Assembly (NCBI GenBank): GCA_963705505.1
Contig: CAVPJU010000001.1
Span: 257,678 to 321,677, forward strand
Reading direction: 5' to 3'
DNA from: an uncultured bacterium
Lineage (GTDB): Bacteria; Desulfobacterota_D; UBA1144; Nemesobacterales; UBA2774
DNA length: 64,000 nt
Part shown: piece after piece, positions 1 through 11,523 of the stretch
Numbering within the stretch: the first letter of the stretch is position 1
Layout of the letters: each line of letters starts with the position of its first letter
Program-made: the position numbers and the translations under genes
The notes under the pieces: model-generated
Database searches by the model: none
What the model saw: the letters and a program-made list of their open reading frames with translations, nothing else
Told to the model about the DNA's origin: nothing

Positions 1-22
1 AGGAAAATCGGAGGACCTATAC

Positions 23-120
23 TTTATTCTCAAATAACCTTGCAACAATTTCAAAATATTGTAGATTTAAATACCGCGGGGTGTAGCTCAGATTGGCTAG
101 AGCGTTGCGTTCGGGACGCA
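23..120 (+). repeat. Left att site: tRNA-Pro promoter plus 5' half of tRNA (77-120)
   Basis: TTTATTCTCAAATAACCTTGCAAC...TTCGGGACGCA matches 10276-10374; identity stops right after the anticodon stem. Confidence 0.92.
40..67 (+). promoter_or_regulatory. sigma70-type promoter (copy of tRNA promoter) upstream of integrase
   Basis: TTGCAA (40-45), 16 bp, TAGATT (62-67); same sequence precedes the intact tRNA at 10293-10320. Confidence 0.65.
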
Positions 121-167
121 AATTGTGAATTAGAAAAACTTCATTGTTATAGTATTTTAAGAAGATT

Positions 168-207
168 TTTCAACCATATTTTCCTTCTTTCTAACCATAT
201 TCTAACC
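168..207 (+). repeat. Putative integrase arm-type sites (left)
   Basis: TTTCAACCATAT (168-179) and TTCTAACCATATTCTAACC (189-207); near-identical tandem at 10189-10207. Confidence 0.65.
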
Positions 208-256
208 CAAGACACTAGCTATATGTCCAAATACTTCAAATCTTTGGAGGCGACAT

Positions 257-1345
257 ATGGCGAGTTTACAGCGTAAGAACGGGACGTATTGGGCGGTCTT
301 TGCTGAAGGGGGTAAGCGAAAGTGGCTTAAGATCGGCGATGTTTCCAAGTCAAAGGCAAAAGCGATATTAAAAGAACTGGAAGCTGAACGGGCAAGAGAT
401 AGGCTGGACCTTCTTTATCTAAAAAAGATAAATTTTTACGAATTCGCGGAAATTTATTTGAGATACGTAAAAACGAACAAATCCGAAAGTTCCTATAAAA
501 GGGAGGCTTACACCGTTAGAAAGTTGAAAGAGTTTTATGGAGATATTCCATTAAGAAAATTCGATACTCAGCTAGTTGAAAGTTATAAAACCAAGAGAGT
601 TGAAGATGGGCTAAAAAATAAAACAATCAACCGGGAACTTGAGATATTCAGACATCTGATGACAATTGCAAAAGATTCAGGGTATCTGTCAAAAGTACCG
701 AAATTCAAAATGCTACCAGTAAAGGTGCCTCCGGTTAGATTTCTCTCAATTGACGAAGTCCATAAATTATTGGAGAACAGTACTCCCTGGTTGGAGCCTA
801 TGATAATTATTATGTTGAATTCTGGTATGCGTTTTTCCGAAGTTAAAAACCTGAAATTTGAGGATGTTGATTTTGATAAGAATATAATCTGCGTCAGATC
901 CGCCAAGAACAGCAGCAACAGATTAAGCTCTTTTACGGACTTCAGGGTAATACCCATGAATGAGGTTCTTAGGGATACATTGATATGGGCTAAGTCTTTT
1001 TATGTAGATCCTAAAACCCTGATTATTAATAAACGGGATTCTCACCGGTTGAATTATGTTTTTTGTAAGCCTGATGGCAGACCAATTGGCAGTATAAGAA
1101 CGAGCTTCACAAAAGCTTGCCGTAAGTCAGGCATTACAAATACCGATACATATATTCTCAGGCACACTTTTGCATCCCATCTGTTAATGAATGGCATTGA
1201 TTTAGTTACGATTCAGAAACTTCTCGGCCATTCCTCAATTTCAACGACTATGATTTATTCTCATATTTCTGATAAACATAGGGCAGAGAGCGTAAAAGTA
1301 CTTCCATGGAACAATTGTGTAAAAAATGTAGAGGAAAAGCTATAA
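257..1345 (+). CDS. Tyrosine recombinase/integrase with short N-terminal arm-binding-like segment
   Basis: SGMRFSE (Arg), YILRHT (HxxR with H->Y), LLGHSS, TMIYSH (catalytic Tyr). Confidence 0.95.
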   Translation: MASLQRKNGTYWAVFAEGGKRKWLKIGDVSKSKAKAILKELEAERARDRLDLLYLKKINFYEFAEIYLRYVKTNKSESSYKREAYTVRKLKEFYGDIPLRKFDTQLVESYKTKRVEDGLKNKTINRELEIFRHLMTIAKDSGYLSKVPKFKMLPVKVPPVRFLSIDEVHKLLENSTPWLEPMIIIMLNSGMRFSEVKNLKFEDVDFDKNIICVRSAKNSSNRLSSFTDFRVIPMNEVLRDTLIWAKSFYVDPKTLIINKRDSHRLNYVFCKPDGRPIGSIRTSFTKACRKSGITNTDTYILRHTFASHLLMNGIDLVTIQKLLGHSSISTTMIYSHISDKHRAESVKVLPWNNCVKNVEEKL

Positions 1346-1460
1346 AGAACAACTAGTTGGCTTAATCTTCATATTCGAAAAATCCTTCCTATCAGTCGGT
1401 AATCAGGCTAACTTTCTGGAGAAACCTCAAAGTACGGATAACAAAGTCTGAACTAAGAAT

Positions 1461-1624
1461 ATTGTCATAATTGAATGACAATTTTTGTCATTTCCGTCGT
1501 TACTCAAATAGCATTAAGTCGTGCTACTTTTCTAGTAATTTGAAGGAGTTAAATAATTGTTAACGATAATTCCGACTAGTATAGTTTATTATTGGCTTAT
1601 AAATAAGATGGCATGAATTTTGAT
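1461..1624 (+). promoter_or_regulatory. Overlapping palindromes plus possible sigma54 -24/-12 site upstream of TPR gene
   Basis: ATTGTCAT-N6-ATGACAAT (1461-1482), AATGACAA-N3-TTGTCATT (1474-1492); TGGCATG-AATT-TTGAT (1609-1624; GA instead of GC at -12). Confidence 0.4.
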
Positions 1625-1686
1625 ACTAAGTAAGAATACAATAAAATTCGTAAACTATCTGACAAATCATTCTTTGGAGTAAGTAT

Positions 1687-4600
1687 ATGTTTGAGACTCT
1701 CGATTCTGAGTTAAATGCTGTCAGTAGAAATAAAAGATTATTGCTTTCTGATCATGTGTTCTCATGCGTTGTAATACCTGGTGTTGATACATCTATAGAA
1801 TTCATTAATTTATGTAATACAATAAAACAGCATCTGTACCAAACGCGAATACAAGTTAATTTTTTGCCAGAAATAGATAAGCAAGCTGGATCATACGAGC
1901 AGCTATTCGATCAATTAGTTGATAACTGCATTTTTGTTATTGCGATGAAAGGGGACTTTGAAAAGAGTTTATCATACGAGTATGGATATTTGAGAGGCAT
2001 AAGAAAGCCAATTATTGTAATAAATACCACATATAATCCAACACCTGCCGATACAAAACATGATAGAGTCAATCATGATAATTATGAATCTACTCATAAA
2101 GAGGTCTTGAATAAATTCATCTATTACATTGACTTAGGTTCAGAATCTCAACATGATCTTCCGGATCAATTTATAAACAAATTCGATCAAATCCTCTTAG
2201 AACTAGTGGAAGGGTCTTTAATTAACTTCGATAAGATCATTAAAGGAAACCAAGAAGTACAGTTTAATGATATCAAATATCTGATAAGTCGTATTATAGA
2301 CTATTATATATTGCGGAATGGATACGGTTTACATGAGATCGATGAGATATTTAAATCGATTGATAAATTAGATGCAAATCAACATAAGAATCTCCCTTCG
2401 TTCGTACTAAACTGCTTACTTGCTCTATCAATTGATTTATTGAGAGCACAAAATGATAAGAATCAAGTTCATGATATAGCAGAAAAGTGCATATCTATGT
2501 GTCAAAAAATATTGGATAATGAAAAAGATTTAGCATTTAAAGCAGTTATAGAGAAAAAGTTGGCTGATTTGCTGTTAATTTCCCCAGACCCGGATAATGA
2601 GGTTGGGAATCTTGAAAGAGCTGTAGATCTTTATAAAAAATCTAAAGAGTATTTAACAATAGATGACTATCCTCATTATTTAGTTTCAATAAATAATAAT
2701 CTTGGTGTGGCGTTGAATGATTTATTCCAAATTGTAGGAGAATCAAAGTATCTGAATGAAGCGAATGATTATCTTTCTAACCTGGTGGCAGATCAAATCT
2801 CTTCAAATTCCAATTCTAATTATGCGTTAGTTAAATATAATCTTGGTATTACCAGGTTGGGGTTTGCTTCAGTGGTTAGTGCTCAATATGATTATTATGA
2901 TGCACTTGAATGCTTCAATAGCTTTCTAATGGATTCTTTTTACCTCGATAATAGTGAAGAATTTTTGGATATTGCAATCAACATTGGGTCTATATATTTT
3001 ACAATTGCTCAAGAGCAAAACGATCAACTATGTTGCGAGAGATCAATAGGAGTATTTCAAAAAGTTCTAGGTTTATGCTCTACTCAAATTCATGAAATGG
3101 AGTACGGAATTATTAACCGCAGTCTCGGTGATATTTATAGCTTTCTTGACACATTAAGACCAGATAATATTGAAACGAAGCTGAATATTATTGGATTTTA
3201 TGAAGAAGCTTTAAAAATATATACACTAGATAAATTCCCAGATGAATATTGTTGTATAAGGTTCAAATTAGCAGATGCACTAAGTACACTTAAGCGTCGA
3301 CACGATTTGGAAAGTGCGTCAGAAATCTTCAATCAACTTTTGAGTACTCCAATTCTTGAGTCTTACAACTACAATTATGCTCTTATTCAAAAGAAACTTG
3401 CCATCTTATACTTAAGGTTAGCCAAAATGGATATGAGTAAGAATTATCACTCTATGGCTATAGAGAGTTACGAAGGCGCATTGTCTCAATTCTCTTCAAT
3501 GAAAGACGAATACGAGATTGCAGATCTAAAAAAGTATTTGGGAGATTTGTACATTCTCGATGCGAAGAAGAAAAGTGATTTCTCTTTATATCTAAAAGCT
3601 ACAGAGGCTTATCAAGATGCACTTAGTTATTTTACAAGAGATAAGTTCCCATTGGTTTTTGCCTCACTCAAGATGAAACTCGGTGATCTAAATATAATGA
3701 TCGCAGAAAATCAGAATTCTATCGATGATTATAATGATGCTATTCGTGCTTATGAGGAATCTCTCAATATTTATAATTCTTATGAATTTCAAAAAGAATC
3801 ATGGGAAGTGCATAAAAAGATTAGCGATACATATATGACCTTGGGAGACATCAAATCAAATTCACAATATCCAGATGATGCGATCAATTATTATACTGAG
3901 GCTCTAAAATTTCTAACAAATCAAAGCTCACCGATTGAAAAGGGGAATGTTCTGAGAAAACTAGGTAATGAGCATGTTCAATTTTCTAGAATTGTATACC
4001 GTACTCAAAATTTAAAACATGCTCTCGAATATTATGAGAAAGCCCTAATGTATTACAATCCTGACGAGTATCCATCCGAATATGAAGAGATAAGAATTAA
4101 TATGGGAATGAATTTCAGGATATTAGCAGTTCTTGAAAAAGAGAGGGGCAACTTGAAAAATGCAATCTCATTTTATGAGAGAGCTGCTGAGTTTATTTCA
4201 ATTAACAACAATCCAAATAAATACGCTTCACTGATGGTCGCAATTGGATCCATATACAAGCAATTATCGCAGATTGAAAATGAAGTAGTTAATAGCAAAA
4301 AAGCTATCGAGTATTATATCAATGGATTAGTTGTTTATAATCCACAAGATCATCCTCTTGAGCATGGTTCTTTACAAAAATATCTAGGGTTAGCATATAT
4401 AGATATAGCCGAGAAAGAGAATTATCTCGAAAATATAAGAAATGCATATAAAGCATTTGAAGCATCTCAAAAAATATATTCAGTCGAAGACAATCCCGAA
4501 GATTTGTTATTTGTGGAGAGTAAATTGTCGGAACTGAGTAGAAAGATTTCAAATGGAGATAACAGCACTTCAAATCAAAATGTGCTTCAGGATGCAAGCT

Positions 4601-6408
4601 ATGATAATTTTATGACGCTTGATCCAATCAATTCTACTCTCAACAATCAAGAAATTGCTGAACAAATAATGACACTTGACCAACCGGCTGAATTTGAAGA
4701 TATAGACTCCAATAGAGAGGGCTTGAAAGAAGTAAGAGTTGAAACAGACGAATTCGGTCCATTAAATTTGGAAATAGACTTTACTAATAACGAATTAAAT
4801 GACGATTCAGAATCTATTGAACGTCTAGATCAGCTCATCAGCGAGACATCTCCAGTGGAATCGCCAAAGCTTCATGCATACCTAAATTATAAGATTGGCA
4901 ATGCCTATCATAATATTGGCAAATCTCACGGTTCCTCACAAAATTACAAAGAAGCAATAAGATATTATGCTCAAGCCTTAAAATATTATACATATGAGGA
5001 ATACCCATATGAATATGCTTGTGTAAATGGCGAACTTGCAACTACTTATAAATATCTAGGTGACTCATCTGGCGATTTAATGAACTATGAGGTTGCAATA
5101 GAATTATACAAGGAGTCATTAGGAGTAATTAAGATTGATGAGCATCCCATTGAATTCGGGAATTATAACCTAAATATGGGACTCATTTTTAGTGAATTTA
5201 GCAGAATTCTTCAACTTAAAAAGTATCATGATAATGCGATACATGCATATAATGAAGCATTAAAGGTTTTTGAATCGAGCGAAAATCCTTCTGAGTATGG
5301 ATTAATTCAGATGAAGCTAGGTTCCGTTTATAGCATGCTTGCTGATTATGAAAGTTACTCCTATAACTGTCTAAAATCTGCTGAAGCTTACAAGCAAGCA
5401 CTAACCGTATACGGATTCGAGAATTTCCCGAATGAATTTGCAGAGATTCAAAAAAAACTGGGCATCTTATATTTGGACTCTGGTTTAAATGATCTGGACA
5501 ATAATAATTTCTTGTTATCTGTAAAATCATTCGAAGAAGCACTAAAACACTATAACTTAGAAAATTACCCGGCGGATTATGGATTAATAAAAATAAAAGA
5601 AGCTAAATCTTATGAATATTTATCCAAAGCTTCCGAGGAATCATTTTATTTGAGACAAAGTATCGATGCTTATAAAGAGGCAATTAAATATTATACCCAT
5701 GAGACTTATCCAGATGTATTTGCTTCGATAGCATTAAGTTTAGGCGATGTTTATCAGAATCACGGTAAACTAGAAAACACAGACATAGATCGAAGAATTG
5801 CAATTGAATACTATAAGCAGGCTCTTATGGTTTATAATTCAATTGAGTTTCCTCTAGAGTATGCAACTACAGAATATAACATAGGAATGGCATACTTAAT
5901 GCTTGCAGATTCTGAGCAACTAAAAGATAATATCATTAAGGCGATAAATTCCTTCAAAGCATCATCAAAAGTCTATTCGAAAATAGGGCTATCTGATCAG
6001 TATGGAAGTTGTGAGAATAATCTTGGCATAGCGTATATGAAAATTGCAAATGAACGGGAAAGTAGTACTTATCTGTTGTTAGCTCAAGAATGTTTTGAGA
6101 AGGCGATTAAAGTCAGGACTTGTGAAAAACAGCCGCTCGAATTTGCCAATACGCAGTTTAATTTAGGGGCCTTATTCATGATACTCTATAAGAACGAGAA
6201 AAAAACAGAATATGCCGAAAGGTCTGTACAAGCTTATGAAAAGGCTCTGCAAATCTACATCGAGGATAAATTTCCGGTTGAATACAACTCAATACAAAAT
6301 AATCTTTCTTGGATGAATCAAACACTTGCTAAAGAAAAAGATGAAAACAAGTCTTATGATAATAGCTGGGCTTACCTACGAAAGTCTACTCCGAATAATT
6401 TAAATTAA
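1687..6408 (+). CDS. Giant tetratricopeptide-repeat protein with N-terminal nucleoside 2-deoxyribosyltransferase/TIR-like domain
   Basis: N-term SLSYEYGYLRGIRKPIIVI; many repeats of the type AIxxYxxALxxYTxExFPxEYAxxQxNLG; acidic linker near aa 955-1050. Confidence 0.8.
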   Translation: MFETLDSELNAVSRNKRLLLSDHVFSCVVIPGVDTSIEFINLCNTIKQHLYQTRIQVNFLPEIDKQAGSYEQLFDQLVDNCIFVIAMKGDFEKSLSYEYGYLRGIRKPIIVINTTYNPTPADTKHDRVNHDNYESTHKEVLNKFIYYIDLGSESQHDLPDQFINKFDQILLELVEGSLINFDKIIKGNQEVQFNDIKYLISRIIDYYILRNGYGLHEIDEIFKSIDKLDANQHKNLPSFVLNCLLALSIDLLRAQNDKNQVHDIAEKCISMCQKILDNEKDLAFKAVIEKKLADLLLISPDPDNEVGNLERAVDLYKKSKEYLTIDDYPHYLVSINNNLGVALNDLFQIVGESKYLNEANDYLSNLVADQISSNSNSNYALVKYNLGITRLGFASVVSAQYDYYDALECFNSFLMDSFYLDNSEEFLDIAINIGSIYFTIAQEQNDQLCCERSIGVFQKVLGLCSTQIHEMEYGIINRSLGDIYSFLDTLRPDNIETKLNIIGFYEEALKIYTLDKFPDEYCCIRFKLADALSTLKRRHDLESASEIFNQLLSTPILESYNYNYALIQKKLAILYLRLAKMDMSKNYHSMAIESYEGALSQFSSMKDEYEIADLKKYLGDLYILDAKKKSDFSLYLKATEAYQDALSYFTRDKFPLVFASLKMKLGDLNIMIAENQNSIDDYNDAIRAYEESLNIYNSYEFQKESWEVHKKISDTYMTLGDIKSNSQYPDDAINYYTEALKFLTNQSSPIEKGNVLRKLGNEHVQFSRIVYRTQNLKHALEYYEKALMYYNPDEYPSEYEEIRINMGMNFRILAVLEKERGNLKNAISFYERAAEFISINNNPNKYASLMVAIGSIYKQLSQIENEVVNSKKAIEYYINGLVVYNPQDHPLEHGSLQKYLGLAYIDIAEKENYLENIRNAYKAFEASQKIYSVEDNPEDLLFVESKLSELSRKISNGDNSTSNQNVLQDASYDNFMTLDPINSTLNNQEIAEQIMTLDQPAEFEDIDSNREGLKEVRVETDEFGPLNLEIDFTNNELNDDSESIERLDQLISETSPVESPKLHAYLNYKIGNAYHNIGKSHGSSQNYKEAIRYYAQALKYYTYEEYPYEYACVNGELATTYKYLGDSSGDLMNYEVAIELYKESLGVIKIDEHPIEFGNYNLNMGLIFSEFSRILQLKKYHDNAIHAYNEALKVFESSENPSEYGLIQMKLGSVYSMLADYESYSYNCLKSAEAYKQALTVYGFENFPNEFAEIQKKLGILYLDSGLNDLDNNNFLLSVKSFEEALKHYNLENYPADYGLIKIKEAKSYEYLSKASEESFYLRQSIDAYKEAIKYYTHETYPDVFASIALSLGDVYQNHGKLENTDIDRRIAIEYYKQALMVYNSIEFPLEYATTEYNIGMAYLMLADSEQLKDNIIKAINSFKASSKVYSKIGLSDQYGSCENNLGIAYMKIANERESSTYLLLAQECFEKAIKVRTCEKQPLEFANTQFNLGALFMILYKNEKKTEYAERSVQAYEKALQIYIEDKFPVEYNSIQNNLSWMNQTLAKEKDENKSYDNSWAYLRKSTPNNLN

Positions 6409-6548
6409 CTTATATAGACGTCGAGTCTCTGAATCTCGCTGATCGGTTATGTGTTTGCCGCAGTTGACTCCTATACATAAAGGAGAAGCCTCTTCAGCTT
6501 CATTGGAATTTTCAAAGGCGACACAGGTTTTCTATGTCTTCTCTATAT

Positions 6549-6610
6549 CTACATTTGCTACACCATCTACACCAAGCACTTAAAGCATGTAGAAGATGTA
6601 GGAAATGTAG
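6549..6610. repeat. Inverted array of 9-bp-period repeats (iteron/origin-like)
   Basis: CTACA at 6549, 6558, 6567; 16-bp spacer; TGTAG at 6588, 6597, 6606. Confidence 0.75.
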
Positions 6611-6694
6611 GAAAAGAGCAAGACCGTCAAAGATATGTGGGACGAATTGTTGTGAATCAGGGGGTAGGAGAATAACATTCTAGACCGACCAGCT

Positions 6695-7903
6695 TTAATT
6701 GTTGACCCCACTGATATTTGTTTTATCGTAGGGGTGTTTCAAGTAGTTGCCGGTTTTAAGGAGATTGTAGATGGCCTCTGTAGCAACCTTATGACCGTAA
6801 GCGTTCCAGTGCATTCCCTTACGGTAGTATGTTCTTCGCCAAGTTCCTTTGAAAGCAGATGCCATGTCATAACAAGTAATGTCGAGTTTCATGCAAATCG
6901 GTTTAATTTTCTCCTGATATGGTGTGGAGTCGTATAGATGTTCAATTTCAATTTTGGAAGGGATGAAAAAAATAACTAGTTTGGCTCCCTTCATTTCGAC
7001 GGCTTTATCAAGCTCTTCAAAAATTCTAGACGTTAACTTCAAGTCTTGCTGAGCTTCAGGATATGAATCGGGATCATTCTGAGTATTGAAGTCTTCGACC
7101 ACGTTTTGGTGATAATCGTAGAGTTCAGAATACTTGGTTTTTAACCGTGTATACATATCGTGTAGAAAGTATGATTTAAATAAGACCTTTTTAACGTACT
7201 CTTTCCAGTCGTTTACCGGGGTGGCGGGTCTATTGGTTTCGTTCCATGCGGGTGTTTTAGGAACAGGCACACCCGTGAGGATGATCTTGTTCCCGGCAAT
7301 TTCGAATTTTGGCTTCGGTTTCTGATAAGGATTCTTGCCGTCGTACTCATATGAATTATTTTCCTCGACATCATTTTCACAAATCATCAATACTACCAGC
7401 TTGATTTGTCCCTGATATCGCCAGTTTTCAAAAGCTAATAGTTCCTGGTCATTACCATAACCGCTCATAGAAAGATTGAATATTTCATAATCTGGCAGCT
7501 TGTCCCTAAGTAGATTAATGAACATTTCATCGAACTCAACCTCATAACCATATGTGAAAGAATCTCCGAGGAATAGAATTGCAGGTTTGCTACTTATACC
7601 TTTATGTTCTATATCTCTGAAACCGTAGGTGTTGTGCTCGACCAGGAAGCTGTTGTTTTCAGTAGTCATCCTGGCTTTACCGCCCGGTACTCCCTTCCAA
7701 CCTAGTACGGGGTCGTATTCAGACAAATTTCCGTGCAGCCTCATATTGATCTCGTATGCGCTGAAGTACGGGAATGGGCTGAATATGCGGTAACCAATCT
7801 CGATAACTAGGAACGTTAGTATTAATGAACATAGAAAAAGTATTATTTTCAGAGGTAAGAGGCGTTGATTCAGATCCGAGGATTGTCGGTTGTGATTTTT
7901 CAT
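6695..7903 (-). CDS. Membrane-anchored SGNH/GDSL hydrolase or acyltransferase
   Basis: N-terminal TM helix, LGDSFTYG, SGYG, ENDV, MHWNAYGH blocks; ATG at 7903 preferred to TTG at 7951. Confidence 0.85.
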   Translation of the reverse strand: MKNHNRQSSDLNQRLLPLKIILFLCSLILTFLVIEIGYRIFSPFPYFSAYEINMRLHGNLSEYDPVLGWKGVPGGKARMTTENNSFLVEHNTYGFRDIEHKGISSKPAILFLGDSFTYGYEVEFDEMFINLLRDKLPDYEIFNLSMSGYGNDQELLAFENWRYQGQIKLVVLMICENDVEENNSYEYDGKNPYQKPKPKFEIAGNKIILTGVPVPKTPAWNETNRPATPVNDWKEYVKKVLFKSYFLHDMYTRLKTKYSELYDYHQNVVEDFNTQNDPDSYPEAQQDLKLTSRIFEELDKAVEMKGAKLVIFFIPSKIEIEHLYDSTPYQEKIKPICMKLDITCYDMASAFKGTWRRTYYRKGMHWNAYGHKVATEAIYNLLKTGNYLKHPYDKTNISGVNN

Positions 7904-8193
7904 ACGAATTCTCGATGGGTAAAGATACTTAATAATGAAGAGCGCAACCAATTTCCAGAATATAAAAAAACAATTCTGAAGACATAACAGTTCAGCTATA
8001 AATCAGAATTTCAAGAATTATTAAAATATGCTTAATATTGTATTTGTATTTTAATTTGATTGTCCTAACTATCTATGTTCAATGCTCTTTTTATATCGAT
8101 TTTAGAGATATAAAGCCTTATTATTCAAGAATTTGATAGATTTGCATATACAAAGCACTTTTTTCTATATAATTATTCTTACTTATAAGAATT

Positions 8194-9405
8194 ATGAAGA
8201 AGCCACCTGCAGTAGTTATTAAGCTGGATTGCAGAACAGGATTACAAACTGCAAGAATATTATCCAGATATCAAATCCCCGTAATAGGAATTGTAGATGA
8301 TCCTGCGAATTTTTGCGGTAGAACCAATTCATGTAAGGAAATTTTAGTTACTAACACATCAGATGAAAGGCTTGTTGATACATTATTGAGTTTAGCTTTA
8401 AAAATACAAGACAAAGCCGTACTTTTTCCTATCAGCGATCAAAGTGTTCAGGTTGTATCAGATAACAGGGAGAGGCTCGGGGAATTTTATCATTTTGTAA
8501 TACCTGATGGTAATATTCTCACGCTTTTCATGAACAAGACAAATTTTTACAAATATGCACAAAAGAAAAGTCTCTCGATACCCAACACTTATTTCCCTAG
8601 AACGAAAGCGGAACTTGATGAAGTAGCAGACAGAATTCAATTTCCTTGTATAGTTAAGCCAGCGATAAGAACTGGAACGGATATTTGGTTCGATCATTTT
8701 AGTAACAAGGTAATTAAAATAAACAACCCGCAAGAATTATATGATGTATTCGATAGATGCTTGATCGCTTCCGAGAATATAATTGTTCAGGATTGGATAA
8801 AAGGAAATGACTCTAACTTGTTATCTAGTATTTTTTACTATGATTCAAACTATAATCCCGTAATAACTTTTACTTCACGCAAACTAAGGCAGTGGCCCAT
8901 AGAAAATGGTGATGCATCTTTGGCTATAGAATGCAGAAATGATGAAGTCTTGAATCAAACCACTGAAGTACTTAGCAGCGTTAAGTTTAAAGGACTAGGC
9001 TCGATAGAATTTAAAATGGACGATTCGAGCGGTAGATATTTTATTATAGAACCGAACATTGGAAGACCCGTCACTAGAATCGGTTTGGTAGAAAAAGCAG
9101 GAGTCGAAATTCTCTATACGATGTATTGTGATGCATTGGGCCTGGCGTTGCCTTCTAAAACAAAACAGCAATTTAAAGGCATAAAATGGATTTCAATTAA
9201 TAACGATATTCGAGCAGCTATGGCTTATTACAAAAATGGCGAGCTAACTATTTGGGAGTGGTTTAAATCGATTCAGGGTGTTAAGGCATTTGCGGATTTA
9301 TCCGTTCGGGATCCCATGCCCTTTTTAATTGAAACATTGTATCCTTTGAAAAAATTTCTCTGGCTATTAAGGCAAAAATTAGCAAGGGCCATATTTAGAA
9401 TCTAA
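8194..9405 (+). CDS. ATP-grasp carboxylate-amine ligase (D-aspartate ligase-like)
   Basis: FPCIVKPA, IVQDWIKG, RKLRQWP, IEFKMD...FIIEPNIGR, DPMPF motifs. Confidence 0.8.
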   Translation: MKKPPAVVIKLDCRTGLQTARILSRYQIPVIGIVDDPANFCGRTNSCKEILVTNTSDERLVDTLLSLALKIQDKAVLFPISDQSVQVVSDNRERLGEFYHFVIPDGNILTLFMNKTNFYKYAQKKSLSIPNTYFPRTKAELDEVADRIQFPCIVKPAIRTGTDIWFDHFSNKVIKINNPQELYDVFDRCLIASENIIVQDWIKGNDSNLLSSIFYYDSNYNPVITFTSRKLRQWPIENGDASLAIECRNDEVLNQTTEVLSSVKFKGLGSIEFKMDDSSGRYFIIEPNIGRPVTRIGLVEKAGVEILYTMYCDALGLALPSKTKQQFKGIKWISINNDIRAAMAYYKNGELTIWEWFKSIQGVKAFADLSVRDPMPFLIETLYPLKKFLWLLRQKLARAIFRI

Positions 9406-9771
9406 AATAAATATGTGTTAAGCTCGAATAAATATTCCACCCCACCAGAACCTGAGATATGAAAACTTATTATCTCTGTTATATCAATATTGCAACAATT
9501 CCTACACCATCTACACTGCATCAACGTTAGTCAGAGATTGAGTTTTCATGTTTTAACAGTTTCTCAAAAGTCTTCCCGGTCTCAATATAGGTTCGTGACA
9601 ATTGATTGATTACCCAAAATTGTAATTGCATTTTATGAACCTTCATGCTCACTTCGATGTCAACATCTAATATCGCTTGATCCCGCCTACTTAGAAGAAT
9701 GTATGTTTTGTTTACTTAAAGTCATACGAGTTGAAAACATACAAAATCATGTACTTTTCTATACTTTTTCA

Positions 9772-9818
9772 TTGACATTTGAGGTAGTAAGCGGTACCGT
9801 ATCTAACAGTGTTAGATA
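9772..9818 (+). promoter_or_regulatory. sigma70 promoter and operator-like palindrome over start of small Cys/His gene
   Basis: TTGACA (9772-9777), 17 bp, TACCGT (9795-9800); TATCTAACA-G-TGTTAGATA (9800-9818). Confidence 0.6.
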
Positions 9819-10099
9819 AATCACTTTTAAAGCAAATTAAATCTCTCAATCTAAAAGAACTACGAGAGCTTCATGGCTACATCCAATCTCATCTACCTCC
9901 GTCTGTTGTCTACCAGCAAAAACCAGTAAAATGCGGATGTAAACTATGCAAAGAAGGTGGAAAAGGTCACGGTCTTTATTGGTATGCCTACTTCACTTAT
10001 CAGAATAAAACTCACTGTATTTATGTTGGAAAAGAAAAGAGAGAAATAGATCCGTTAGAAGAGCTTGAGAAAAAGAAAACTAGACGGAGGTCTAAATAA
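9809..10099 (+). CDS. Small basic Cys/His protein (DUF6788-like), putative DNA-binding
   Basis: CGCKLC...HGLYWYAY...IYVGK motif; basic C-terminus; at element end opposite integrase. Confidence 0.75.
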   Translation: MLDKSLLKQIKSLNLKELRELHGYIQSHLPPSVVYQQKPVKCGCKLCKEGGKGHGLYWYAYFTYQNKTHCIYVGKEKREIDPLEELEKKKTRRRSK

Positions 10100-10188
10100 T
10101 GGGAGTCTTTAAATGGAACAATAGAGTCAAACTTTACATATTGCACTGATCTGATTATAATTTTTCATGAGAATAGACATATAGTTAG

Positions 10189-10207
10189 TTCTAACCATGT
10201 TCTAACG
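10189..10207 (+). repeat. Putative integrase arm-type sites (right)
   Basis: TTCTAACCATGTTCTAACG, 17/19 identical to 189-207. Confidence 0.65.
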
Positions 10208-10330
10208 GATATGTAAGAATTAAGGGAAAAACCAGTGTCCTTAACGAACTTACAAGAATGCCAATTTGAGTTCTTTTTATTCTCAAATAACCTTGCAACA
10301 ATTTCAAAATATTGTAGATTTAAATACCTG

Positions 10331-10408
10331 CGGGGTGTAGCTCAGATTGGCTAGAGCGTTGCGTTCGGGACGCAGAGGCCGCCGGTTCAAGTCCGGCCAC
10401 CCCGACCA
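10331..10408 (+). tRNA. tRNA-Pro(CGG)
   Basis: Acceptor stem CGGGGTG/CACCCCG, anticodon arm TTGCG-TTCGGGA-CGCAG, T loop GTTCAAGT, encoded CCA. Confidence 0.97.
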
Positions 10409-10431
10409 TTAATTTCAAGTGCTCTCGCCTT

Positions 10432-11523
10432 TTAGCGGGAGAATACGACCATAAGGATTTCCGCCAGGATCAAAATAATAATGACCAGTTCCAGAGTTTG
10501 GCTTTGGGTCGTTCGCACCCGGTCGGTTAGCAACTGATATAGGCTGGCGATAATGTCGAGTTTGCGCGAAATGGCGCTCTCCCAATCTTGCAGATAGAGT
10601 CTTCGAGCGGCGACGGCATGAACTCGGGCCAGATAGAGATCCCCAATCAGCTTGAGGGCATTATCAACCCTTTCGGCTAGCAACAGCGATTCGAGTCGTA
10701 GTTCGGCCAGTGCTTGAATCGCTTTCCGATTTGGCGTGCGCAACGGCACTAACCAATCTCTGTGTTTGAACGAGAGTCCTTGATAATCGCCGATGCGCCG
10801 ATCCAGTTGCTCGTCCATATAGCGCGCTTCTAATAACTCCACGTTGAGTAATTCTAAGACATTGACGGTGTCTTGATAATCACGATCATAGACAAGCGCC
10901 GCATTCCAATCCACAATGACTAGATCGTTCTTGTAGTAAGAGAGCCTTTGATTCAGCGCCTCCTCTTGCTGCTCTAAACTGAACGGCTGAGTTTCAAACC
11001 GCAGCACCTGTGCGATGAGTGAGCTGTGCTGCGCCAGCAAATCGGCGGCGGACCAGGGTTGGTCAAATTCCTCTATGACGAACAAATAATAATCTTCTAC
11101 CAGAGGCGACAATTCAGGCCGGATTACTGCCGAGCGAATTTCTTCCAGAAATACTTGAATCTGTTCCTTCGCCTGAGCTTCCAGATTACGGTCATGAAGC
11201 GTTCGACTGAGCGGTTGCAAATCTGCCAATGACAGGGCTTGCTGGCCGGTGGGCAGTGACCATTGATAAGCTATGCTGGCAGCGCCGAAATCAAAGACTG
11301 TGACCTGCGCTCGCCCTGCTTCAGAAAGAATGGGTCTTATCTCTCCCAAATTCACGACGAGAGGCGGCTTTGAATACTGTATGAAAGTGGGGGTCTGTTT
11401 TTTGGGCGAGAGCGGCTGCACAGGTGCTGATGAAGGCAACTTGCTAAGCTGCTCGAGCGACACCTCAAAGCCAATGTCAAAGGCAAAAAGAGCTATTACT
11501 CTGCCGTTCAAGATCTTCGTCAT
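10432..11523 (-). CDS. Conserved hypothetical protein, RMD1/DUF155- or CorA-like, with C-terminal TM helix
   Basis: 363-aa ORF; DLVIVDWNAALVYD, GDLYLARVH, LELVIIILILAEI C-terminus. Confidence 0.6.
   Translation of the reverse strand: MTKILNGRVIALFAFDIGFEVSLEQLSKLPSSAPVQPLSPKKQTPTFIQYSKPPLVVNLGEIRPILSEAGRAQVTVFDFGAASIAYQWSLPTGQQALSLADLQPLSRTLHDRNLEAQAKEQIQVFLEEIRSAVIRPELSPLVEDYYLFVIEEFDQPWSAADLLAQHSSLIAQVLRFETQPFSLEQQEEALNQRLSYYKNDLVIVDWNAALVYDRDYQDTVNVLELLNVELLEARYMDEQLDRRIGDYQGLSFKHRDWLVPLRTPNRKAIQALAELRLESLLLAERVDNALKLIGDLYLARVHAVAARRLYLQDWESAISRKLDIIASLYQLLTDRVRTTQSQTLELVIIILILAEILMVVFSR

Follow-up and report, generated by a model that had tools for sequence, protein, structure and literature searches.

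The window analysed here, the whole 64-kb stretch at C1:257678-321677 of the source genome G000, contains what we read, with a probability of roughly 85%, as a 10.25-kb integrative island seated in the single tRNA-Pro(CGG) gene of a Thermodesulfobacteriota genome and provided with its own tyrosine integrase (gene int). The island is an unusually complete example of a known minority kind of element, in which the 5′ half of the target tRNA gene is carried. It comes with a complete set of components: the integrase and both attachment-site arms, each with recognisable arm-type sites, are present, sister species provide the empty sites, and sister integrases show the classical and the divergent layout. 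Two questions are thereby opened: how an integrase family changes which tRNA half its element carries, and what regulatory role, if any, is played by a strong host tRNA promoter stranded before int.

Briefly, the attachment site of the free element (attP) would consist, in order, of a P arm with TCTAAC-type sites, a copy of the tRNA promoter, tRNA nucleotides (nt) 1 to about 33 and the anticodon loop, and would continue through the 3′ strand of the anticodon stem and the P′ arm with its arm sites into int. Recombination in the anticodon loop would split the host tRNA gene. The promoter and 5′ half of the element (nt 1 to about 40) would then be joined to the host 3′ half to give a working gene at the right end, while the left end would retain the stranded host promoter and 5′ half, on the strand of int and 136 nt ahead of it. 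A first-pass annotation of the window had already proposed that the element supplies a replacement promoter and 5′ half, and the layout of the repeat, the empty sites, and the repeat boundaries of relatives, all described below, bear this out.

Direct repeat and tRNA-Pro(CGG) at the island ends

A repeat search yielded two exact blocks, one of 53 nt (window 23-75 and 10276-10328) and one of 45 nt (76-120 and 10330-10374), which are separated in the right copy by a single extra T at 10329. The direct repeat thus totals 98 nt on the left (23-120) and 99 nt on the right (10276-10374), and a near-perfect repeat of this length is far beyond chance. The sole tRNA that ARAGORN calls in the window is the intact tRNA-Pro(CGG) at 10331-10408 (+), and the left copy of the repeat comprises 54 nt of upstream DNA followed by tRNA nt 1-44. 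When compared with the genome’s own tRNA-Pro(CGG) by BLAST, the left fragment matches positions 1-44 at 100%; this tRNA gene is single-copy in G000, where Pro(GGG) and Pro(TGG) are also present. The first-pass annotation had described a repeat of about 54 bp of upstream DNA plus tRNA nt 1-44 and had located the intact tRNA in the right-hand end; both descriptions hold, the former as the two exact blocks with their 1-nt indel.

In detail, the left end consists of the host-side copy of the tRNA-Pro promoter (23-75, +; B arm of the left attachment site, attL), the displaced tRNA 5′ half (nt 1-44 at 77-120, +, an exact repeat of 10331-10374), and the attL core (105-121, +), which overlaps the end of the half-tRNA. 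In linear tRNA numbering the anticodon stem occupies positions 29-33 and 41-45 and the loop positions 34-40, and the repeat stops at nt 44, one base before the end of the stem, where the copies part at A121 on the left and G10375 in the intact tRNA. The left anticodon arm reads TTGCG-TTCGGGA-CGCAA, confirming the perfect TTGCG-N7-CGCAA dyad noted at first pass, and the corresponding 3′ strand of the intact tRNA is CGCAG. The likely overlap region is the 7-nt anticodon loop (110-116, +). At the right end, the tRNA promoter and short leader supplied by the element (10276-10330, +) include the −35 box at 10293-10298, the −10 box at 10315-10320, and the extra T, and the core of the right attachment site (attR, 10359-10375, +) lies within the intact tRNA.

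The integrase gene (257-1345, +) encodes a protein of 362 amino acids (aa) that matches PF00589 over residues 162-341 (E-value 1.1e-29; 103.8 bits against a cut-off of 27.1) and the SAM-like N-terminal core-binding domain PF13102 (E-value 1.1e-9; 38.9 bits against a cut-off of 22.3). Tyrosine recombinases use a catalytic set of R, K, H-x-x-R, H, and Y. In an alignment with 24 relatives, R192, K217, R302, H325, and Y334 of the G000 enzyme fall on the catalytic positions; the first catalytic His is replaced by Tyr (Y299) in G000 and in G047 (L064) alone and is His elsewhere among the 23 rows that cover the position. The G000 integrase also has an 8-residue insert following the catalytic Lys.

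Host setting and empty sites

The enclosed DNA has a GC content of 33% (31-40% inside), and the DNA on both sides about 45-55%. Upstream of window base 1 the DNA has about 50% GC, and its minus strand carries an aldo/keto-reductase-like gene, which is syntenic in relatives. Because this upstream DNA has host-like GC and carries that gene, the left repeat copy is not the right end of some other element, and a tandem element adjoining the window on its left, considered as a candidate, was ruled out on the same grounds.

The comparison with unoccupied sites, suggested at first pass, drew on nine other genomes of the same genus (G001-G009) and, for the left flank, on a search of 41 genomes in total, 38 of which gave some match. 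In three same-genus genomes (G004, G009, and G002) the left flank continues directly into an intact tRNA-Pro(CGG), its 5′ side being empty, as expected for an uninterrupted target. The intact tRNA is preceded by 1.6 kb of other DNA in G003 and by 0.5 kb in G008, the contig ends in G001, and G005 gave no match to the left flank. Synteny of the right flank extends to G003, G004, and G007.

The same element in related genomes and metagenomes

G007 carries a 5.8-kb island with the same junction between half-tRNA and P′ arm and a repeat that extends, by a count made by eye, from −46 to +44. Its TPR-repeat protein is 93% identical to that of G000, and at the DNA level the identity is 96% over window 1349-6492, against only 80-88% between the host genes that flank the G007 island and those of G000; this difference points to recent movement of the island between species. 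The G007 int is internally deleted, its first 21 nt being joined to its last few codons. The region 6493-10029 of the window is absent from the G007 copy and is therefore regarded as extra cargo of G000. In addition, one metagenome contig (record 1 of X1, covering 76-969 and about 90% alike) spans the half-tRNA/P′ junction.

These copies bear directly on whether the repeat could be an assembly or binning artefact, or else an ordinary duplication that forms no pair of attachment sites. The genome is metagenome-assembled, 93.6% complete, and spread over 10 contigs, which gives such an error some opening, but matching junctions are found in the assemblies of G007, G014, and G047 as well as in one metagenome contig, the GC content shifts sharply at both repeats, and an integrase and arm sites are present. 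Since the half-tRNA/P′ junction recurs in G007 and in an independent metagenome contig, an assembly artefact is rejected, and the whole class of such explanations is scarcely credible.

A contig of G006 (C100; L018/L027) holds a tandem array in which a G000-type element has decayed to a P′ arm site, the start of int, and a right end; the array continues with a promoter and half-tRNA and then with a G014-type element that has its own integrase. This arrangement implies that new elements enter the rebuilt tRNA and that arrays grow on the 5′ side.

Attachment-site layouts among integrase relatives

Relatives of the integrase were sought in 120 genomes of the class, which gave 25 loci in 16 genomes at 39-48% identity, and the DNA upstream of int was classified for each. 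A scan of GTDB species gave 39 integrase loci, under the label Thermodesulfobacteriota and others. The classical layout (layout A), which carries the 3′ half and places an intact same-strand tRNA (Glu, Leu, Met, Thr, or Arg) before int, accounts for 11 of the 25 loci; L080, cut by a contig end, and L071, where a 3′ part from position 12 lies behind the arm sites of another element, are similar to it. Layout B, with a same-strand tRNA-Pro(CGG) 5′ half before int, is present at four loci, so that the 5′-type attachment site of G000, sought in related integrases, is also found in G047, G014, and G006; in G014 and G047, as in G000, the intact tRNA lies at the end of the island away from int. Layout C, seen at three loci (L063, L077, and L081), has an intact opposite-strand tRNA (Met twice, Arg once) that diverges from int, and is approached by L079, again cut by a contig end, and L084, with a 5′ fragment on the opposite strand. 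G000 does not have this divergent arrangement, a same-strand 5′ half preceding its int. At the three remaining loci (L072, L074, and L083) nothing recognisable was found directly upstream of int.

Among all repeat boundaries compared, the anticodon stem-loop is the sole part held in common. On the classical side, the 3′ fragment covers tRNA positions 29-75 in L023 (tRNA-Thr, 6.6 kb away) and 25-74 in L042 (tRNA-Ala), and the 3′-side remnants at the same tRNA-Pro in G003, G004, and G007 start at tRNA positions 31-37. In layout B, the repeat runs from −54 to +44 in G000, from −46 to +44 in G007, from −28 to +40 in the 23-kb island of G047, and from 0 to 47 in G014, and in G006 a fragment of positions 1-49 is followed by int and then by the end of the contig. 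In the layout-C element of G041 (tRNA-Met), the repeat extends from −23 to +38 and ends at the last loop base.

The upstream ends of these repeats also tell what the elements bring with them. In G047, the region common to both copies is −28 to +40, and a separate TTGCAA is found farther upstream of each. In G014, the rebuilt tRNA is preceded by DNA with no relation to the host promoter kept beside the fragment; as this upstream DNA is not shared between the copies, the element must bring different upstream DNA of its own, within which a candidate promoter, TAGAAA-N16-TAAAAT, was recognised by eye about 20 nt upstream of the rebuilt tRNA.

The integrase tree has 25 rows, corresponding to the loci of the class search minus L074, whose N-terminus was not recovered, plus L024, which is identical to L066. 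The enzymes of G014 and G006 are nested within a tRNA-Thr group of layout A with 100% support. A single origin of layout B was rejected by the approximately unbiased (AU) test (p 0.0015, at a cost of 72 log-likelihood units; a quick tree had been inspected before the test), and the grouping of G000 and G047 as one clade was not (AU p 0.25). The four layout-B integrases thus do not form one clade, which implies that the switch to the 5′ half took place at least twice, each time at tRNA-Pro(CGG). None of the 25 loci is a layout-A user of tRNA-Pro(CGG).

This tRNA gene is also used from its 3′ side. In G014 (L020), the tRNA (c2804-2881) is immediately followed by another integrase gene of the other strand, whose product is 30% identical, and 3′ fragments occur 0.5-2 kb downstream of the intact gene in G003 (L017, 4591-4641), G007 (L016, from 7992 onward), and G004 (L005, from 3574 onward). 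In G041 (L087, 8150-8400), the tRNA-Met 5′ fragment at the far end is followed by sequence resembling the start of int and the arm region in elements of this type, which suggests that tandem arrays form in the divergent layout as well. Close relatives of the integrase were also met on two short contigs, L025 and L026, labelled Xianfuyuplasma and Ignavibacteriales; the integrase region of L025 is identical to that of the Thermodesulfobacteriota contig L024, a sign of either mis-binning or a transferred element.

Probable arm-type sites

The 64-kb window has two plus-strand occurrences of the motif TCTAACCATNTTCTAAC (190-206 and 10190-10206), against 0.01 expected by chance. The first of these sites, the tandem motif TCTAACCATATTCTAAC, lies in the P′ arm (122-256, +), which also contains the GGAGG ribosome-binding site of int (247-251, +). 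The second, TCTAACCATGTTCTAAC, lies in the P arm (10030-10275, +) together with an inverted TTCTAAC at 10054-10060. The P-arm region 10030-10275 is conserved, at 75% in G007 and 88% in the G006 remnant, and the P arm of G047 has at least seven copies of TTCTAAC directly upstream of its promoter copy.

Upstream of int in 24 related loci, a script searched the 130 nt before the ATG for a tandem CTAAC-N6-CTAAC with one mismatch allowed per half. The tandem was found at 16 of the 24, of which 14 are clear by eye and two (L079 and L085) doubtful, and in most tandem-bearing loci, whichever of the three layouts they have, it ends 36-53 nt before the ATG. Of the eight loci that lack it, four (L070, L073, L075, and L082), all of the tRNA-Arg clade, show a different tandem, CAAAGAAT, at about 10-25 nt from the start of int on its upstream side; this suggests that the arm motif changes along with the integrase clade. 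The recurrence and placement of the tandem CTAAC/TTCTAAC motifs are consistent with arm-type sites for the integrase protein (Int).

Position of the crossover

The anticodon loop is most likely the place of crossover, as the first-pass annotation had implied, given that the stem-loop is the one part common to the repeat boundaries of the relatives. The simplest reading is that of a single conserved core in which Int would bind the inverted stems and the 7-nt loop would form the overlap, with the restoring sequence carried on one side or the other.

Several points nevertheless weigh against an island integrated in this way. The crossover point is unreadable from G000 alone because the repeat copies are identical, and the copies do not differ at any of the 53 upstream nt, a region that varies between species. 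No excision product, whether an attP joint (10275-10374 to 121) or the joint of an emptied host site (attB, left flank to tRNA 3′ half), was found for window 1-11000 among the contigs of four metagenome DNA runs; contigs break at the repeat, which gives this negative little weight. Finally, Y299 replaces the first catalytic His of the G000 integrase, a change that may or may not be compatible with full activity; the island may still be mobile today.

The first two of these points would equally suit a crossover near −54, upstream of the tRNA, by which the tRNA would never be split and the left promoter and half-tRNA would be element DNA within the P′ arm. However, the left ends of the repeats vary (−54 in G000, −46 in G007, −28 in G047, and 0 in G014), every right end lies just beyond the anticodon loop, the repeats of classical relatives and of the 3′-side remnants at this tRNA begin within the anticodon stem-loop, and the attL stem-loop is a perfect dyad, as expected for a core site. 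An exchange near −54 is accordingly improbable, and a crossover in the anticodon loop is the reading retained in what follows.

tRNA promoter and expression of int

The tRNA promoter was read by eye as a −35 box TTGCAA (40-45) and a −10 box TAGATT (62-67) with a 16-nt spacer, a reading that is not among the sites listed by a consensus promoter scan. A block CCTTGCAACAATTTCA(A/G)AATATTGTA(G/A)ATTTA is common to the same-genus sequences aligned or listed. From these hexamers, transcription would be expected to start 2-3 nt upstream of the mature tRNA 5′ end. The promoter copies at 23-75 and 10276-10328 are 100% identical though this stretch differs at several positions between sister species, which requires either that the element acquired the stretch recently from a very closely related host or that gene conversion has made the copies alike. 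Stringently controlled promoters have GC-rich discriminators. Here the stretch from the −10 box to the tRNA start, TAAATACC, is AT-rich, and the stringent control of int envisaged in the first-pass annotation is thus unsupported by the sequence.

The displaced tRNA promoter faces int. The half-tRNA lies, as originally described, 136 nt before the same-strand integrase reading frame, which opens at 257, with no terminator between them: no terminator-like site was found in window 1-1800, and the predicted RNA fold of 74-275 (z-score −1.26) has no terminator-like or otherwise notable structure. As the half-tRNA lacks the 3′ acceptor strand, it should escape excision by tRNA-processing enzymes. 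On this arrangement, read-through from the displaced promoter could contribute materially to int expression, a proposal we hold tentatively and with the odds slightly against it, and it would probably act on top of an Int-repressed int promoter in the P′ arm. The copy of the promoter carried by the element would also face int in the excised circle, which means that any coupling would not be specific to the integrated state and would not amount to an integration sensor.

Alternatively, int may be transcribed from a promoter of its own in the P′ arm that overlaps the tandem arm sites and is repressed by Int, in the manner of IntS of KplE1 (CPS-53), with the tRNA promoter irrelevant or blocked; Int bound at the core and arms could indeed block read-through. 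We consider the chances of this arrangement to be evenly balanced. The tandem arm sites keep their distance of 36-53 nt before the ATG in most tandem-bearing relatives of three layouts, a placement that coincides with that of the Int-repressed promoters of KplE1-type integrases (PMC2951348), and in the circle of the classical relatives no tRNA promoter precedes int, such that the family presumably has an int promoter. For KplE1, which uses argW, autoregulation by IntS has been shown (Panis et al. 2010, PMC2951348), and according to the same paper, int promoters that overlap attL are subject to negative autoregulation where a tRNA lies ahead of int or is divergent from it. Against this stand the absence of any good sigma-70-like plus-strand promoter among those listed in 122-256, the lack of conservation in G007 of the best −10 box found by eye (TATAGT at about 150), and the lack of a terminator between the tRNA promoter and int.

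It is conceivable, though unlikely, that at least two integrase lineages of the family switched independently to layout B, each time at tRNA-Pro(CGG), and that this layout is itself selected for, since a tRNA promoter and a structured half-tRNA leader that cannot be processed would precede int whether the element is circular or integrated. If true, int expression would be coupled to growth independently of the integration state, which is impossible for the classical layout, and the half-tRNA leader would be a functional part of the int mRNA.

Relation to known systems

Islands with a 5′ fragment of a tRNA gene (tDNA) are already catalogued, numbering 159 of the 3919 islands in Islander (Hudson et al. 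2015, PMC4383910, Table 1), and the rarity ascribed to the present island at first pass was therefore overstated. The Islander filters expect a 5′ fragment upstream of the tDNA (PMC4383910), and the G000 island resembles the islands of this class in combining an intact tDNA with a same-orientation upstream 5′ fragment, a tyrosine integrase inside, a length of 2-200 kb, and an anticodon boundary. The 5′ fragment at 77-120 (+) lies upstream of the same-strand tDNA at 10331-10408 (+), the repeat copies are spaced by 10,254 bp with the integrase between them, and the repeat boundary falls at the stem-loop (29-45), with dyad symmetry and the same boundary in relatives. The present case differs in that int lies next to the displaced fragment, not the rebuilt gene, and in that the duplication extends over 53 nt of promoter, on both of which the relevant passages of the Islander paper are silent (PMC4383910). 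This layout matters to island-finding software because tRNA finders miss the half-tRNA that borders such an element.

Recombination with the 5′-distal part of tRNA genes has been called “considerably less frequent” than with the 3′ part, with reference to Zhao and Williams 2002 and to archaeal cases (PMC6563490). The elements of archaea, including thaumarchaea, treated there (Krupovic et al. 2019) are similar to the G000 island in recombining with the 5′ part of a tRNA, but belong to another domain of life and to other integrase groups, and promoters and the position of int are not detailed in the portion of that article concerned with them.

The G000 element also differs from a further precedent in the direction of its target, for in G000 the tRNA keeps its usual direction relative to int and only the carried half is switched. 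The reverse-orientation element of Zhao and Williams 2002 (J Bacteriol 184:859) reportedly replaces the 5′ part of its tRNA and must thus supply a promoter; its target gene is reportedly turned round relative to the element, as in layout C (e.g., G041), where int diverges from the rebuilt tRNA.

KplE1, along with other pairs of a tRNA gene and an int directly behind it on one strand, provides a parallel for the left end of the island, in that a tRNA sequence is followed by a same-strand int and a short intergenic attL has arm-type sites just before int (PMC2951348). However, KplE1 carries the argW 3′ end and has an intact tRNA beside it, whereas the neighbour of int is here a 5′ half that cannot mature; autoregulation was demonstrated for IntS (PMC2951348) and may apply to the G000 integrase. 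Coupling of an element to a growth-rate-regulated tRNA promoter is also not a new idea, having been raised in the same paper with credit to Swenson et al. 1994 (PMC2951348). Word searches for literature descriptions of elements carrying a 5′ half returned nothing usable, a weak negative given that the prime sign is unsearchable, and the combination of int beside the displaced half with the restoring segment beyond the core may or may not already have been described.

Further island content

Beyond int, the conserved core of the element is a gene for a 1573-aa TPR-repeat protein (1687-6408, +). Its Pfam matches are to TPR families only, with no recognisable enzymatic domain; PADLOC and NCBIfam gave weak TPR-type matches alone, and a protein-atlas comparison gave scores of at most 0.88. 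Contigs resembling the region of this gene are present in the four metagenome runs. The metagenome contigs give zero cover of window positions from about 6607 to 10276, and those in X1, X2, and X4 turn unlike the window after 6479-6492.

The extra cargo segment at 6493-10029 is delimited by the alignment with G007, which jumps from 6492 to 10030. It contains genes for an SGNH/GDSL hydrolase (6695-7951, −) and an ATP-grasp protein (8194-9405, +), both recognised by Pfam and NCBIfam matches, and most of a 96-aa open reading frame (9809-10099, +) that extends 70 nt beyond the segment.

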